Made by a program: the position numbers and the translations under genes
DNA from: Dehalococcoidia bacterium
GTDB lineage: Bacteria; Chloroflexota; Dehalococcoidia; Bin125
Direction of reading: 5' to 3'
Assembly: GCA_963663185.1 (NCBI GenBank)
Contig: OY760135.1
Location: 463,684 to 527,683, forward strand
Length of the DNA stretch: 64,000 nt
Notes under the pieces: generated by a model
Database searches by the model: none
What the model was told of the DNA's origin: nothing
What the model saw: only the letters and a program-made list of their open reading frames with translations
Shown: in pieces, positions 4,285 to 62,408 of the stretch
Layout of the letters: each line of letters starts with the position of its first letter
Position numbering within the stretch: the stretch's first letter is position 1

Positions 4285-7064
4285 GCGTGCCGCAAACAAC
4301 GTTCTCCGACTTTTACCGGGCTGTCCATGGCCATCCGCCTTTCCCCTGGCAGGCGCGTCTGGCCGAGCAGATCGCTCGGACCGACGAGTGGCCGGCCGAG
4401 ATTGGCGTGCCTACCGGACTTGGCAAGACGGCCTGCTTGGACATTGCGATCTGGTGGCTGGCGTCCCAGGCAGACCGCCACCCGAGCCAGCGGACCGCGC
4501 CAACCCGCATCTGGTGGGTGGTCAATCGGCGTCTGTTGGTCGATTCGACGGCTGAACACGCTGAGCGCCTGGCGCAAATGCTTGCCGCACCTGCCCTGGC
4601 CGGATTGGAAGGCCCGGCGCTGGCGGCGATTGACGATGTAGCCGAGCGCCTCAGTCGTCTCTCGACGATTGCAGACCTACCTCCGCTGGACGTGATTCGA
4701 TTGCGCGGCGGTGTGGCCTCCCGAGCCCCGACCGACCCATCACGCCCGACCGTGATCCTGTGCACCCTGCCAATGTTCGGTTCCTGGCTCTTGTTTCGTG
4801 GGTACGGTTCGAGGTACCGCCCGATCGACGCCGCGATGGCGGGCACCGACAGTCTCGTGCTCCTGGATGAGGCGCATCTGGTCCCCCACCTGACGTCGCT
4901 CGTGGCTGCCTTGGGTGATTGTGCACCCGCCGCGCAGGCGATTCCTGGCGATGCTCGCTCCAGCGCCAGATTGATCTCGTTGACCGCGACAGGCGATCCT
5001 TCAGGTTCCAGATTTGACCTAGACGAATCAGATGAAGCGAATCCGATCGTGAGGAAGCGGCTCGATGCCGCGAAGCCGCTGGAGATTAGGCGGCTCGAAA
5101 GAGGCGAGATTGCCAAGCGCCTAGCGGACTCGGCACTCGAACTCCTGTTGCAGGCAGCTTCGCCGGCAGCCTGCCTGGTCTTCGCCAATACCCCGAAGAC
5201 GGCACGGGAAACGTTCGGCCACCTACAGGGCAAACTGCCAGAGACAGAGACTGAACTGCTATTGCTCACCGGGCTCGCTCGCGAACGGGAGGCGGAATGG
5301 ATCCGCCGGCGGATCCTCGATCCGGCCGAGGGCATGGCCGTCAATCGAAGAGACGACAGCCCGCGCCGCCGGCACCTAATCGTTGTTGCAACGCAGACGC
5401 TTGAGGTGGGCGCCGATCTCGATGCCGAATATCTCGTCACCGAGGCTTGCGGCGTGCGGGCGCTGACTCAGCGCTTGGGCAGGTTGAACCGGCTCGGCCG
5501 TCACCCTCACGCTCGGGGGATATACATCCATCTCCCTCCGCCTAAGCGGCGCGGCGGTTCAACGTCGGAGGAATGGCCCGTCTATGGTTCGGAGCCAGCA
5601 GCGGTCCTGAGCCGACTGGATGTTGCATCCGCAGGGGGCGACGTTCGAGTCGTGGATTTGTCGCCGAGGCGGGTGGCTGAAGTCCTCGGCCCTCCTGGCG
5701 ACGATCCCGGACGCGCGCCCGAACTCTTGCCTGGCATCCTCTGGGAGTGGACGAAAACGACAATCCCACCCGATGGCGAGGCCCCGGTTGAGCCGTACTT
5801 GAGCGGCATCGCGGGCGCCGAATACAGGGTTGCCCTTTGTTGGCGCGTGCACATACCTGAGCAAGGTGAGCGCCTTTGGCCGCGGGCAAGCGACGGTGAA
5901 ACCGTTGATGTCCCAATCGCGGAAGTGCGAGAGGCGCTTCGGATGGACGATGTCGTCCATCGCCTGGCATCTGATGGGGTCACTGTGGAAACCGTTGAGC
6001 CTGGACTTCTTCGCCCGGGAGACCAGCTTGTGATTTCAGCTGACCGTGGTCTCTTGGACGGATTTGGCTGGAATCCGGCCGCCACCGGCCGCGTCGTAGA
6101 CACGTCCCTCATCGGCCAGGGGCTGCCCCTCGACAGAAAGGCGATCAAACGGCTCTGCGAAGTCGAACTGGAACCGCACGTCTTGGCCGCGTTGGAAACG
6201 GCCGAGGACGGCGATACCGATCAAGAAGAACGAAGCGCAGCGGTAGCGACAGTGTTACAGCAAGTTCGCGATGCGAAGACGCCGGACGGATGGGACGATG
6301 CTGAATGGGCCGAGTTCACCCAGTCACTCTCGTTGGTGGTCGAAGAAGCGCGCCACGAAGTTCCCCGGCTGCGGGCTAATGTTTCTGGGTCAACCCGGCC
6401 GCGCAGCGACCTGGGCAGTGAGTTCGACGAACTGTCTCTGCATTCTGCCTCGGTTGGACTCGAAGAACACGGCCGGGAAGTCGGCGCGATGGCTCGCTCG
6501 ATTGCTGGGAACATCGGCCTCTCTGATGACCTTGTGGACGTAGTGGGGCTCGCGGGACTGCTGCACGATATCGGCAAGGCCGATGAACGGTTCCAGCGCT
6601 GGCTCGATCCCGAAGGCGAACAGAGTGCGCTCTTGGCGAAGTCCAACACGCCGCGGCATCGTTGGGAGGCGACCCGCGCTGACGCTGGATGGCCCCGCGG
6701 CGGTCGACACGAGGATATCTCGGCTCGTCTGGTCAGGACGTGGCTCGAACAGAACCCAGCATGGGGTGATCCAGTGCGCAGGGATCTGTTGCTGCACCTC
6801 GTAATCAGCCACCACGGCAAGGGTCGGCCGTTGGTCCCGCCTGCTGCCGACGGCACCGCGAGAATAGTCTCTGCACAGGTGAACGGCACATCCGTCACGG
6901 CACAAGCGGACCTCTCCATCGTTGACTGGAGTCAGCCGCGACGGTTCAGGCAGCTCAACGACCAGTTCGGACCCTGGGGTCTGGCCTTGCTGGAGTCGAT
7001 TGTGCGATTGGCAGACCATGCCGTTTCGGCCGGCGTGGTTTTGTCTGGGGAGGTGACTCAATGA
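4281..7064 (+). CDS. cas3: Cas3 helicase-nuclease with C-terminal HD domain (type I-G/I-U architecture)
   Basis: SF2 helicase motif I VPTGLGKT, motif II LLDEAHL, later RLGRLNRLGR. C-terminal HD domain LLHDIGKADERFQ ... ISHHGKGRP. The helicase-then-HD order is typical of I-U/I-G Cas3. Confidence 0.85.
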   Translation: MSVPQTTFSDFYRAVHGHPPFPWQARLAEQIARTDEWPAEIGVPTGLGKTACLDIAIWWLASQADRHPSQRTAPTRIWWVVNRRLLVDSTAEHAERLAQMLAAPALAGLEGPALAAIDDVAERLSRLSTIADLPPLDVIRLRGGVASRAPTDPSRPTVILCTLPMFGSWLLFRGYGSRYRPIDAAMAGTDSLVLLDEAHLVPHLTSLVAALGDCAPAAQAIPGDARSSARLISLTATGDPSGSRFDLDESDEANPIVRKRLDAAKPLEIRRLERGEIAKRLADSALELLLQAASPAACLVFANTPKTARETFGHLQGKLPETETELLLLTGLAREREAEWIRRRILDPAEGMAVNRRDDSPRRRHLIVVATQTLEVGADLDAEYLVTEACGVRALTQRLGRLNRLGRHPHARGIYIHLPPPKRRGGSTSEEWPVYGSEPAAVLSRLDVASAGGDVRVVDLSPRRVAEVLGPPGDDPGRAPELLPGILWEWTKTTIPPDGEAPVEPYLSGIAGAEYRVALCWRVHIPEQGERLWPRASDGETVDVPIAEVREALRMDDVVHRLASDGVTVETVEPGLLRPGDQLVISADRGLLDGFGWNPAATGRVVDTSLIGQGLPLDRKAIKRLCEVELEPHVLAALETAEDGDTDQEERSAAVATVLQQVRDAKTPDGWDDAEWAEFTQSLSLVVEEARHEVPRLRANVSGSTRPRSDLGSEFDELSLHSASVGLEEHGREVGAMARSIAGNIGLSDDLVDVVGLAGLLHDIGKADERFQRWLDPEGEQSALLAKSNTPRHRWEATRADAGWPRGGRHEDISARLVRTWLEQNPAWGDPVRRDLLLHLVISHHGKGRPLVPPAADGTARIVSAQVNGTSVTAQADLSIVDWSQPRRFRQLNDQFGPWGLALLESIVRLADHAVSAGVVLSGEVTQ

Positions 7065-58214: not shown

Positions 58215-58424
58215 ATGAGCCGCACGATCACCAACCAAGAGACCGTCCGTAGGATGTTCGATCGTGGATGCTCCGCTAAAGAGGTTGAAGCTGCCATCCA
58301 TCGGCCTCTGACCCAGAGAGACATGGAGCACTGGATGGACGACGAGTTCGGGCTGCCTCGAGGACAGAACGAGACGCGGTTTGATCTGACCGACATTCAG
58401 GCGGCCATCCAGGCACTGACGTAG
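58215..58424 (+). CDS. Small hypothetical protein (69 aa)
   Basis: ORF with GGAG 7 nt upstream of ATG. No recognisable motif; followed by a REP-like hairpin at 58435-58462. Confidence 0.3.
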   Translation: MSRTITNQETVRRMFDRGCSAKEVEAAIHRPLTQRDMEHWMDDEFGLPRGQNETRFDLTDIQAAIQALT

Positions 58425-58676: not shown

Positions 58677-59156
58677 TCAGGCAATAGCATCTTCGATCTG
58701 GTGCATGTGCTCCTCCCGATGAGCCGCGCGGTCGATCGCGTATGACTTGCCTGTCGTCCGCAGAGCGGTGATCTGCTGATCGCTCAGCGATGCCACGATC
58801 GTGTCGAGCGCTTGCGCCGCCTCGACCGCCGCTTGACCGACCGTGGCGAGATCGAACGTTGATGCGATTGCCGCCAACGTGGCATTGGTCGCGATATCCT
58901 CCGAAGGGAAGTCCTCACCGGCGGCAACGCGTTGCAATGCAGCGACCTGTCTCGCATCCCAGAAGGCGATGTGGACCAAGGCAAATCCGACCGTCCACCC
59001 GCCGCCGAGCGAGCGGCGGAGATCAGCTGCGCTCAATTGGCCGACCAGGGCTCGCAGATGGTCGGTTGATGCTTGATTGCCAGAAGCACTGTTGTCAGTT
59101 GTCGCCATTTCTGCTCCAATTCGAACAAGTCGCGCACCATCACAGGTCACGCGCAC
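58677..59156 (-). CDS. DinB/YfiT-like (DinB_2) four-helix-bundle family protein, tentative
   Basis: 159 aa; resembles the N-terminal domain of mycothiol-dependent maleylpyruvate isomerase / DinB_2 proteins (LRRSLGGGWTVGFALVHIAFWD). Weak. Confidence 0.35.
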   Translation of the reverse strand: MRVTCDGARLVRIGAEMATTDNSASGNQASTDHLRALVGQLSAADLRRSLGGGWTVGFALVHIAFWDARQVAALQRVAAGEDFPSEDIATNATLAAIASTFDLATVGQAAVEAAQALDTIVASLSDQQITALRTTGKSYAIDRAAHREEHMHQIEDAIA

Positions 59157-59207
59157 AGGTCACGCGCAATCAACCGTAGTCGACTCCTCAACCGATCGGA
59201 ACTCTCG

Positions 59208-59873
59208 ATGGCGACCGGCGACCTCGTGGATCGATTCGCGGCGCTCTATCCGCGCCTCTACCACATGGCGGAGTCGGGGAGTTGGCCCAGCATCCGCGAG
59301 CGCGGGCTATTGGGCACGACTGCGCTGCTGGACCTGTTCGAGATCGACGCTTCGCAGCGGCGCGAGATTGAGTCGCAGTGGCGTCGGAGTACCGTTCCGA
59401 TCAGCCATCCGATTCAGGGGACCGCCCTGATCCGTGATCAATGGCCGATGCCGCCCAAACACCTGGCGGGCGGATTGGACGGCATGACGCCTCAACAGTG
59501 GTACGAGTTTCTCAATCGCAAGGCGTTCTTGTGGCTGTCGGAGAAGCGTCTGATGCGAATGCTCAATGCCGTCCCGTACCGCAACACTGCTCACGATGTC
59601 CTGACCCTGGACACTCGCTCGTTCGTCGCCGAGTACATCGAGCGGATTGAGGTCTGCGCGATCAACTCCGGCTTCGCCATGCCGATGTTCGGCAAGGTGA
59701 CGAAGCGATCCTTCGCGTCCTTCCAGACCATTGAGCGACGCGCGGCGACTGGACGCCTGAGCGGCCTTGCCGAATTGACAGTGGACTGCGGCGCGCCCGA
59801 TGCCTGGCGCTTCGTCATGTCCGTCGAGTCGTGGCGCGGGAAACAGCGTCTGTCCACGACCTGGCGGCAATAG
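59208..59873 (+). CDS. DarT-like (DUF4433) ADP-ribosyltransferase domain protein, no DarG partner adjacent
   Basis: N-terminal RLYHMAESGSWPSIRERGLLG aligns position-by-position with the DarT consensus YHFTHIDNLPSILEHGLLS (Y,H,P,S,I,E,G,L,L conserved). 222 aa, typical DarT size. ATG 59208 chosen. Confidence 0.5.
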   Translation: MATGDLVDRFAALYPRLYHMAESGSWPSIRERGLLGTTALLDLFEIDASQRREIESQWRRSTVPISHPIQGTALIRDQWPMPPKHLAGGLDGMTPQQWYEFLNRKAFLWLSEKRLMRMLNAVPYRNTAHDVLTLDTRSFVAEYIERIEVCAINSGFAMPMFGKVTKRSFASFQTIERRAATGRLSGLAELTVDCGAPDAWRFVMSVESWRGKQRLSTTWRQ

Positions 59874-59923: not shown

Positions 59924-61540
59924 TCAAACCGAGTACTGCCGCTCCCCGTCGACGTAGGTTTGCTGGACAACGATCTCGTTGATGAACTGCGGCTCCACGA
60001 GCGATGGATCGTGGCTCAGCACGACCAGGTCGGCTCGTTTGCCCACCTCGATCGAGCCGACCTCGTGGTCGCGGAAGATCGCGGCGGCTGAGTTGATCGT
60101 GTACGTGCGCAGCGCCTCCTGCGCTGAGATCGCCTGCTCCGGGACGACGATGTCGCCATCGCGGCTCTTGCGTGAGACGATGGCGCCGATCCCCAGCAGC
60201 GGCTCAACTGGCGCGCAGGGGAAGTCCGAGCCCGAGGCGATGTGCGCGCCGGAATCGAGCAGGTCGCGATATGGCAACGGCGGGTTGTCGAAGCCGTTCT
60301 CGGCGAAATAGGTCTGGAAACCCGCGCCGACCGAGTAGAGGAAGGCCGGCTGGTGCGAGATCATCACGCCGAGCGATGCGGCCCGCTCCATTTGATCGGG
60401 CTGGCCGAGGAAGAAGTGCTCGATCCGATAGCGCGGATCGGCGCGCGGTACTTCGCGCTGAGCTCGCTCGAAGGTGTTGAGCGCCTGCTCAACGGCGCGA
60501 TTGCCCAAACAGTGAATCGCTACCTGTAGATCATGCTTGGCCGCATTGAGGACGAGCTGGTCAACCTCTTCCTGGCTGTAGTACGGCTCGCCGACATCCT
60601 CGAAGCCGCCGTCAGCGTGACACTTGCGCATCGCGAAGCTGGGGAAGACAGGATCCATGAAGACCTTGACGATCCTGCCGCGCAGGCGGTCCGAAACGTC
60701 GTCCTTGAGAAAGGCGCCGTTGGCGGCGTCCTCGGGCGCGGCGAAGAAGCCGTTGCCGCCGCGCATCTGATGAATCACGATCGGCAGCTTGCCGCGTTCA
60801 TCGGCGTAGCGATACATCTCAGCGCTCTCGGGCATGACCACAGCGTCGCCGAGGCTGGTGACCCCGTGCGAGAGATGACGCCGCGAGTTCTGCTCGACGA
60901 GGTCGGAAACGATGTCGGGGCCGAGCGCGTCGATATGGGCGCGCATGGAGGCGAAATGGACCGGATCGCTGGCCCGCTCCCAGAGCAGACCGTGGGCGTC
61001 GCCGTTGAGGTTGCGATGGATCACGCCACCGCGCGGATCAGGCGTGTCACGATCGATGCCGCCGATCGCCATCGCGGTCGAGTTGGCGTAGGAGGCGTGA
61101 TACGAGAAGTCCATCACGCAGACAGGATTGTCGGGGGCGGCGTCATCGAGTTCAGTTCGGGACAGCCAGCCGCCCTCATGGTTGCCGGTCGCGCTGGCGC
61201 TGTAGCCCAATCCCCAGATCCACTGACCGGCGGGAGCGCCCTGCGCAGCGGCGGCGATGGCATCAAGCACGGCCTGCCGACCGGCCAGCGGCGGTACCCG
61301 GCAGTCGACCGACACTGGTTCGAACGATGTCATCGAGAAGTGGTTGTGCGGGTCACAGAAGCCAGGGATGAGCGCGCGACCACGCAGATCGACGTGAGTC
61401 GCATCGGGAGCGACCGCACTGCGCGCCTGATCGCTGTCGCCAACGGCGATGATTCGTCCGTCGCGGATGGCAACTCCCGAAACGACGCGATCCAGCGCGT
61501 CCATCGTCAAGACGCGTCCGCCAGTGAACAGCAGCTCCAT
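59924..61540 (-). CDS. Amidohydrolase-3 family metal-dependent hydrolase
   Basis: 538 aa; LIPGFCDPHNHF metal-binding His motif and overall Amidohydro_3 layout. Confidence 0.75.
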   Translation of the reverse strand: MELLFTGGRVLTMDALDRVVSGVAIRDGRIIAVGDSDQARSAVAPDATHVDLRGRALIPGFCDPHNHFSMTSFEPVSVDCRVPPLAGRQAVLDAIAAAAQGAPAGQWIWGLGYSASATGNHEGGWLSRTELDDAAPDNPVCVMDFSYHASYANSTAMAIGGIDRDTPDPRGGVIHRNLNGDAHGLLWERASDPVHFASMRAHIDALGPDIVSDLVEQNSRRHLSHGVTSLGDAVVMPESAEMYRYADERGKLPIVIHQMRGGNGFFAAPEDAANGAFLKDDVSDRLRGRIVKVFMDPVFPSFAMRKCHADGGFEDVGEPYYSQEEVDQLVLNAAKHDLQVAIHCLGNRAVEQALNTFERAQREVPRADPRYRIEHFFLGQPDQMERAASLGVMISHQPAFLYSVGAGFQTYFAENGFDNPPLPYRDLLDSGAHIASGSDFPCAPVEPLLGIGAIVSRKSRDGDIVVPEQAISAQEALRTYTINSAAAIFRDHEVGSIEVGKRADLVVLSHDPSLVEPQFINEIVVQQTYVDGERQYSV

Positions 61541-61700: not shown

Positions 61701-62408
61701 TCAGCTGCGGTGTTGGCGAATGACGGACACGACGCGGCCTTGAATCTCCATGTTGGATTCGTCCGTGTAGATCGGGTCCATGGTCGGATTCTCCGGCTGG
61801 AGACGCACGCGGCCATCCTCGTAGTAGACGCGCTTCAGCGTGGCCACTTCCTGATCGTGCAGCCAGACCGCAGCCATCTGACCGTTGTGAACGCGCGAGG
61901 CCGGCTCCATGATGACGATGTCGTCCTCAGTGATGTAGGCGTCGATCATCGAGTCGCCCTTGACGGTGAGCGCGAAGTGCTTCTGCGGATCGAGTCCGGG
62001 CACGATGTCGGTGCTGACCGAGATACGTTCCTCGGCATGGTTCGCCACGACGCCTTCGGGCACGAGTGAGCGGGTACCAGCGGCGATCGTGCCGAGCAGC
62101 GGCACGCCGAGCGGCGACCGCGTCAGGGAGATGGTGCGGGCCCGCTCGCGGTCGCGGTGGATGTGACCCTCGCGCTCGAGAATCTTCAGGTTGTAGTCGG
62201 CAACCGAGGTGGAGGACAGGCCACAGCCGTCAACGATGTCGCGAACGGACGGCGGATAATCGTTCTCGATGAAGTAATGTTGGAGAAATGCGAGGATACG
62301 CTCCGGCTTGTCCGAGCGGGGACCGCGTTTGCCCCGACGACGGCCCAGCGGCTGTTCTTCCTTGATTGGGTCACTGTTGGCGGTGGTGGTCATGCTGCGG
62401 GCCTCCAT
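61701..62408 (-). CDS. lexA: LexA repressor (S24 peptidase) with N-terminal extension
   Basis: wHTH DNA-binding region YPPSVRDIVDGCGLSSTSVADYNLKILEREGHI. S24 catalytic region VKGDSMIDAYI (Ser) and later K in VATLKRV. 235 aa. Confidence 0.85.
   Translation of the reverse strand: MEARSMTTTANSDPIKEEQPLGRRRGKRGPRSDKPERILAFLQHYFIENDYPPSVRDIVDGCGLSSTSVADYNLKILEREGHIHRDRERARTISLTRSPLGVPLLGTIAAGTRSLVPEGVVANHAEERISVSTDIVPGLDPQKHFALTVKGDSMIDAYITEDDIVIMEPASRVHNGQMAAVWLHDQEVATLKRVYYEDGRVRLQPENPTMDPIYTDESNMEIQGRVVSVIRQHRS

Follow-up and report, generated by a model that had tools for sequence, protein, structure and literature searches.

The 64,000-nucleotide stretch of contig OY760135.1 analyzed here (positions 463,684 to 527,683 of the forward strand, assembly GCA_963663185.1, Dehalococcoidia bacterium; hereinafter, the window) encodes a protein of the DUF7002 family that most plausibly is an intact, selectively maintained ADP-ribosyltransferase (ART)-like enzyme, fixed in the chromosome as a solitary gene and separated from the eraser and the kinase/adenylosuccinate synthetase (AdSS)-like partners that usually accompany this family. 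An earlier note on this DNA had presented the gene as an orphan copy of the DNA-modifying toxin DarT lacking the DarG macrodomain antitoxin; we find that the encoded protein is not itself a DarT, but a DarT relative with an ART fold. The position of the open reading frame (ORF) given in that note is correct:

59208..59873, + strand: DUF7002-family gene, from the ATG at 59208 to the TAG ending at 59873, encoding a predicted ART-fold enzyme of 221 amino acids (aa)

DUF7002 (PF22531) is the single Pfam match of the window protein (E=1.9e-53; 181.4 bits against a gathering cut-off of 27), and the match covers profile positions 1-194 of 195. All 370 homologues that were found carry the same domain, and the closest of these, with 64-80% identity, come from metagenome-assembled genomes (MAGs) of Chloroflexota/Dehalococcoidia. 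A HMMER scan of 1.84 billion representative sequences yielded 1,951 clusters at E≤1e-3, including 1,290 at E≤1e-10; among the 150 DUF7002 matches listed, nearly all are single-domain proteins of 200-230 aa. No NCBIfam model matches the window protein.

In an alignment of 47 diverse DUF7002 members, the invariant or nearly invariant positions are H19 (within LYHMAE), R51, R59, the R76-D77 pair, N103, F107/W109, Y124, H129, N153-x-G155, R167 and E189. Among these, H19, R51, R59, R76, D77, N103, F107, W109, Y124, N153, G155, R167 and E189 are kept in the window protein. The conserved positions include three motifs that together form a putative active-site signature:

59250..59273, + strand: motif I, PRLYHMAE (residues 15-22), in strand beta-1, with H19 as the candidate NAD-binding His
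59526..59534, + strand: motif II, F107-L108-W109 (family consensus FFW), in place of the YVPFYF of DarT
59772..59786, + strand: motif III, ELTVD (residues 189-193), in a beta strand, with E189 as the candidate catalytic Glu

At least 90% of the family members retain H19, and both F107 and W109 are kept in all groups, whereas L108 is peculiar to the clade that includes the window protein. The C-terminal half also contains the conserved Glu that the earlier note had proposed to look for, namely E189, which is invariant in all 47 aligned proteins. The confident AlphaFold2 model of the window protein (predicted local distance difference test score 92.7, predicted template modelling score 0.89) points to the ART fold: of its 50 best PDB matches in Foldseek, nearly all are ARTs. 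The best match is DarT1 of E. coli (8baq; E=2.2e-4, probability 1.0, template modelling (TM) score 0.37-0.39), and further matches include DarT of M. tuberculosis (7yk3; E=2e-3), the A1 chains of cholera toxin and heat-labile toxin, DarTG of Thermosipho (7omu), and the RNA 2'-phosphotransferase Tpt1. The Tpt1 structures show the lowest root-mean-square deviation (rmsd) among the matches, 5.3-6.6 Å, with probabilities up to 0.98 and E=0.02. A library of viral structures yielded weak matches of the same kind, including a DarT and Tpt1-like proteins.

DarT (PF14487/DUF4433), the toxin of the DarTG systems, ADP-ribosylates thymidine in single-stranded DNA. Membership of the window protein in this family, as asserted in the earlier note, is refuted: PF14487 gives no match at E≤1, an outcome that the note itself had named as speaking against its assignment, and PADLOC returns no match of any kind, DarT included, whereas the match to DUF7002 is full-length. 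As a control, PF14487 is matched by all nine proteins in a comparison set of genuine DarT genes from plasmids (up to 6.5e-68), and a separate macrodomain gene follows eight of the nine, a pattern that occurs in no DUF7002 locus. The broader part of the original idea holds all the same: the predicted ART fold, DarT as the closest solved structure, and the same order of the His, aromatic and Glu motifs. Both proteins are of similar size (~210-220 aa); each appears to have, in its N-terminal part, a beta-1 motif whose conserved His precedes a short helix and G-L-L and, close to the C-terminus, an A-E-[FL]-x-V strand that includes a conserved Glu. The peptide that had been quoted as agreeing with DarT nearly residue for residue, RLYHMAESGSWPSIRERGLLG, is indeed present, although at residues 16-36 rather than 17-37, and the agreement reduces to a motif-level likeness centred on the conserved His, with about 6 of the 21 residues (Y, H, P, I, G, L) identical to the consensus of the nine DarTs. 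Judging from these alignments, the resemblance is real at the level of motifs, but weak.

Profile comparison conveys the same picture. Alignment of the 47-member DUF7002 set with DarT using hhalign recovered only a local stretch at the N-terminus (21% identity over 34 columns, E=0.0015, probability 17%), and only the motif I stretch aligns with the IYHITH of DarT at useful confidence. A permissive hhalign alignment keeps the three motifs in order at low confidence, with H19 in motif I, FLW opposite PFYF and AELTV opposite AEFLV; E189 is thereby placed, at the same low confidence, opposite the invariant Glu of the QAEFLV motif of DarT. One of the genuine DarTs weakly cross-matches the DUF7002 model (E=0.0055). 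That the gene nevertheless encodes a genuine DUF4433-type single-stranded DNA thymidine ADP-ribosylating toxin split from its DarG antitoxin appears extremely improbable: the best structural match, the DarT-like N-terminal motif and the absence of a macrodomain nearby are all compatible with this possibility, but the profile searches, the consistent behaviour of the genuine DarTs and motif II, which reads FFW or FLW instead of YVPFYF, contradict it, and the region between the motifs cannot be aligned with DarT.

The genomic context of the family provides the principal clue to its activity. A species-wise scan (one genome per species) detected DUF7002 relatives in 455 species of Bacteria and Archaea, and 80 of these loci were kept; all ORFs from 84 loci, that is, the 80, three additional ones and the window, were then clustered. 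This analysis revealed a recurrent cassette of three genes. In 52 of the 84 loci (62%), a gene of ~535 aa is located directly upstream of DUF7002 on the same strand, with a gap of -20 to +53 nucleotides in 50 of the 52; its product is a P-loop kinase (AAA_33/AAA_18) fused to an AdSS-like domain whose best match is the short archaeal AdSS (5k7x, 4.8e-50), with phage PurZ (7odx, 3.5e-27) matched as well. In 46 of those 52 loci, the kinase-AdSS gene is itself preceded by a gene for a ~455-aa protein that combines an N-terminal IrrE/CapP-like M78 peptidase containing the HEIAH motif with a C-terminal macrodomain of the ALC1/TARG1/SCO6735 class. When the profile of this partner was compared with PDB sequences, the macrodomain matched BT1257 (5.6e-47), SCO6735 (3.2e-43), ALC1 (4e-20) and TARG1 (6e-11), as well as the ADP-ribose 1''-phosphate phosphatase macrodomain 6lfu (4e-7), and the M78 domain matched IrrE (3e-11) and CapP (1e-8). 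In PADLOC, the same protein matched capP (7.5e-20) and DarG (2e-8). Representative cassettes, in each of which the three genes are co-directional and DUF7002 comes last, are found in loci L002 (3029-6681), L055 (2966-6648) and L045 (2903-6630); archaeal carriers include Nitrosopumilus, Cenarchaeum, Thermoplasmata and Bathyarchaeia.

Macrodomains of the ALC1 class, SCO6735 included, reverse ADP-ribosylation that is linked to thymidine in DNA (PMC9411070). The conserved pairing of a putative writer with a predicted eraser argues strongly, if indirectly, for DUF7002 being an enzyme that transfers ADP-ribose, the acceptor probably being DNA; DNA is the preferred candidate target because the usual macrodomain of the cassette belongs to the class with this thymidine-directed activity. 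In this family-wide linkage to an ALC1/TARG1/DarG-class macrodomain, DUF7002 resembles DarT, although the organization differs: the macrodomain partner of DUF7002 is fused to an M78 peptidase and encoded two genes upstream, darG is a gene of its own located downstream, and a kinase/AdSS-like gene is part of the DUF7002 unit. The M78 domain links the cassette to other systems, namely CapH/CapP, IrrE/DdrO and RosmerTA: it matches capP, IrrE and RmrA, the M78 antitoxin of RosmerTA, and because of these matches the cassette is suggested to be controlled by DNA damage or infection. The likeness to these systems is limited to the partner gene, which is absent from the window. No description of an M78 protease-macrodomain fusion was found in the literature searched.

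Several loci deviate from the basic arrangement. In Pseudomonas sp. TH43 (L055, 6654-11852), genes for an extra stand-alone P-loop kinase, for a phage-type integrase and for a KAP-family NTPase come after the cassette, suggesting a mobile or defence island. In some Dehalococcoidia (L002, 6693-8701, and L018), the cassette is followed by a 236-aa protein without a Pfam match and then by adenylosuccinate lyase; together, the AdSS-like enzyme and the lyase would complete a two-step nucleotide amination of the PurA/PurB or PurZ type. Another Dehalococcoidia locus, L082, carries two DUF7002 copies, at 1734-2447 on the - strand and at 6016-6630 on the + strand.

No paper mentioning DUF7002 was found in the literature searched; however, a family with closely similar features has been predicted. 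An in-silico survey of Legionella ARTs published in 2025 in BMC Genomics describes the 'Lmac_3114' family as distant DarT homologues, with the RNA 2'-phosphotransferase (Tpt1) also among the closest relatives, the motifs Hxx/FFW/xxE and DNA as the predicted target (PMC12522546). In that survey, an AdSS domain, along with an AAA domain, is reported nearby in 60% of the cases (PMC12522546), which compares with 52 of 84 loci (62%) here. Given the shared motifs, the shared relatives, the AdSS-rich neighbourhood and a similar taxonomic spread that includes Pseudomonas and Burkholderia, Lmac_3114 and DUF7002 very probably are the same family, a conclusion drawn from motifs, context and taxa rather than from direct sequence comparison; no Legionella proteins are among the best 120 homologues of a Pseudomonas DUF7002 member. 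In the text of the survey, there is no reference to the M78-macrodomain partner, to archaeal members or to solitary sub-clades (PMC12522546), and no other paper linking adenylosuccinate synthetase with DarT was found in the literature searched. The window gene is a new member of a family that very probably was already predicted in silico; the M78-macrodomain component was not found described in the literature searched.

The recurrent association with a kinase and the structural matches to Tpt1 bear on the main rival explanation, under which DUF7002 would be a Tpt1/KptA-like enzyme that removes 2'-phosphates from a nucleic acid or a nucleotide in an NAD+-dependent manner, or caps 5'-phosphates. 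Within the cassette, the substrate of such an enzyme would be what the adjacent P-loop kinase produces, with the macrodomain processing the ADP-ribose-phosphate by-product; alone, the enzyme would carry out harmless repair or processing, and solitary copies would be tolerated. Tpt1/KptA, which has an Arg-His-Arg-Arg catalytic tetrad, is likewise an NAD+-dependent ART-fold enzyme that acts on nucleic acids, is among the closer structural matches, in fact those with the lowest rmsd, and is named among the closest relatives of Lmac_3114 (PMC12522546). Furthermore, both proteins are rich in conserved Arg and His, and the many invariant ones in DUF7002 (R51, R59, R76, R167, H19 and H129) recall a phosphate-binding site; in most loci, the gene directly upstream encodes a kinase domain, the partner profile does match an ADP-ribose 1''-phosphate phosphatase macrodomain, and partner-less lineages have originated several times independently. 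However, the Pfam PTS_2-RNA profile of Tpt1/KptA does not match the window protein, the invariant Glu of motif III is typical of H-Y-E ARTs and is missing in Tpt1, and the macrodomain resembles the ALC1/SCO6735 class (E ~1e-45) much more than it does ADP-ribose-1''-phosphate phosphatases (E ~1e-7). We therefore regard the Tpt1-like activity as unlikely, and a DUF7002 enzyme that transfers ADP-ribose to a nucleic acid as the preferred reading.

In the window, the gene lacks the partners that are typical of the family. Its immediate neighbours are those named in the earlier note, a divergent DinB-like gene and a convergent amidohydrolase gene:

58677..59108, - strand: DinB_2-family gene encoding 143 aa from the ATG at 59108 (Pfam DinB_2, E=9.9e-7), divergent from the DUF7002 gene
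59924..61540, - strand: Amidohydro_3 gene, convergent with the DUF7002 gene

A search of the entire 64-kb window with tblastn and hidden Markov models detected no M78 gene, no macrodomain of the ALC1/TARG1, DarG or MacroD type, and no AdSS-like gene. The description of the gene as an orphan without a macrodomain antitoxin accordingly holds both for the adjacent genes and for the 64 kb, except that the partners usually present and lost here are the M78-macrodomain and kinase-AdSS genes, not darG; in this lack of any partner, the window copy also differs from DarT. In the phylogenetic tree, the window protein is monophyletic with the members from 13 orthologous loci (73-80% identity), and the kinase-AdSS and M78-macrodomain genes are found within 6 kb in none of these 14 loci. 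The sister lineages L017, L021 and L048 are solitary as well. The orphan state is derived, given that the window clade is nested among cassette-bearing Dehalococcoidia. Partners are also missing in a minimum of four further lineages (among them Tepidiformaceae, alphaproteobacteria and Chloroflexia), which have unrelated metabolic genes as neighbours.

The solitary gene is under purifying selection: comparison of the clade orthologues with the window copy gives ratios of nonsynonymous to synonymous substitution rates (dN/dS) of 0.13-0.34 at dS of 0.5-1.05. The clade has conservative changes of its own, namely F108L, an insertion of two residues at 161-162, and G168S, and the ORF is intact in nearly all 14 clade genomes. 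In L005 (5998-6513), the orthologue is truncated to 171 aa by a frameshift or an assembly error. The loss of the partners together with the latter truncation could be taken to indicate an inactive relic or pseudo-enzyme left behind by the cassette, but such decay is highly improbable given the low dN/dS over substantial divergence, the intact reading frames, the retention of every family-invariant residue and the native base composition of the gene (GC of 0.632 compared to 0.64 for the window; GC at third codon positions of 0.81). Of the three outcomes that the earlier note had considered, inactivation is thus disfavoured by purifying selection and the intact motifs; the enzyme may instead be repurposed, or protected against by some other means.

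In each of the 14 clade loci, DUF7002 has a DinB_2 gene beside it or close by; none of the 70 other loci has one, and no other neighbour is conserved to this extent in the clade. It is either upstream and divergent or downstream and convergent, and is never co-directional with DUF7002. We read this association as synteny rather than as an operon or an immunity partnership. A role of DinB_2 as the immunity partner is unsupported: the genes are never co-directional, the association is confined to the clade, and the neighbours of solitary copies in other lineages are unrelated. Some DinB-fold proteins are thiol-dependent detoxification enzymes, and the clade gene is embedded among metabolic genes, with DinB_2 always beside or near it; other solitary copies adjoin thiolase-like, ChsH2-like or alcohol dehydrogenase genes. 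Such surroundings would fit an Arr-like small-molecule ART that modifies a xenobiotic or a metabolite within a catabolic or detoxification neighbourhood (DinB_2, CoA-transferase, amidohydrolases). This possibility seems quite unlikely: the orientation of the DinB_2 gene gives no indication of a shared operon, the neighbours of the solitary copies vary from lineage to lineage, and the retention of all the residues that are conserved in the cassette-linked members argues against a changed substrate class. Both the small-molecule reading and the relic reading are less likely than the Tpt1-like one.

Under the preferred reading, DUF7002 would be a single-domain, ~220-aa ART-fold enzyme, distantly related to DarT and Tpt1, with the signature H/F-x-W/E (H19, F107-W109, E189), that uses bound NAD+ to ADP-ribosylate a nucleic acid, most probably at a DNA base. 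The usual unit of the family across Bacteria and Archaea, a mobile three-gene cassette, would link a writer to an eraser, following the same logic as DarT-DarG. The window sub-clade would have lost both partners and persisted in conserved chromosomal synteny among catabolic genes as a domesticated solitary writer, with self-damage possibly avoided through tight regulation, an eraser encoded elsewhere or a changed target. The basic character of the window protein (pI 9.6, 23 Arg) counts in favour of this reading. Extending this reading, we tentatively propose, while regarding it as far from established, that DUF7002 is the writer of an unrecognised nucleic-acid ADP-ribosylation system of Bacteria and Archaea, in which an ALC1-class eraser is fused to a damage- or infection-sensing protease of the IrrE/CapP type and coupled to a kinase/PurZ-like enzyme. 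The window clade would then represent an eraser-free, domesticated version of the writer, for example, a regulated DNA- or RNA-marking enzyme in Chloroflexota that, by the names of the MAGs, appear to be sponge-associated.

Several observations weigh against this reading. Known ARTs resemble the protein only distantly in structure (TM 0.3-0.4 and rmsd 7-10 Å in Foldseek), and searches of PDB sequences with phmmer or the family profile yielded nothing relevant. The sequence link to DarT is weak as well, with the low hhalign probability of 17% and a failed global hhalign alignment, and motif II (FLW/FFW) lacks the Tyr of DarT. In the model of Lmac_3114, NAD docks at a non-standard position (PMC12522546). 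The target is deduced solely from the class of the macrodomain at other loci, and this partner is absent in the window. Finally, a solitary, constitutively active DNA ADP-ribosyltransferase would be expected to be toxic, yet at least five independent partner-less lineages inherit the gene stably and vertically; the enzyme may not be a toxin at all.

The discovery of DarT showed that bacteria ADP-ribosylate DNA bases and that this modification is dangerous enough to call for a dedicated eraser. DUF7002 is an apparent second DarT-related family, with ~1,950 representative clusters, an eraser architecture of its own and an unexplained link to a PurZ-like enzyme. The window copy amounts to a natural experiment, a partner-less version kept by selection. 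If it is an eraser-free writer, a DarT-like enzyme can be kept stably without a linked antidote; if the protein is a harmless Tpt1-like processing enzyme, the finding is an ordinary one.

Within the window, the DUF7002 gene is the only + strand gene among those identified between 56.9 and 62.4 kb and, because of this, is probably monocistronic. The ATG at 59208 is favoured over an alternative upstream start, the TTG at 59073, because the homologues share the same first residue in the alignment. No sigma-70-like promoter or intrinsic terminator was detected around the gene, a result that carries little weight for Chloroflexota. Two further features of the neighbourhood are:

61701..62408, - strand: LexA gene (LexA_DNA_bind and Peptidase_S24; 235 aa), with an N-terminal extension of ~35 residues
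59109..59207, no strand: intergenic region, 99 bp, separating the divergently oriented genes DinB_2 and DUF7002 and containing a tandem duplication

The LexA gene is located 1.8 kb from the DUF7002 gene, a closeness that attracts attention given the IrrE/CapP-type (DNA-damage-type) protease partner of the family, but may be coincidental. Inspection by eye found no convincing LexA-box palindrome upstream of either the DUF7002 gene or lexA, and the idea of LexA control of DUF7002 was dropped. A PIG-L gene is also found farther out, beyond the Amidohydro_3 gene. On the other side, a 69-aa ORF (58215-58424, + strand) lies between the CoA-transferase and DinB_2 genes and partly overlaps the over-extended N-terminus of the CoA-transferase ORF. 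The tandem duplication in the intergenic region is exact and consists of two 13-bp copies of CACAGGTCACGCG at 59141-59166; in the loci L015, L007 and L014, where the upstream region is partly conserved with that of the window, a similar sequence is present in a single copy.

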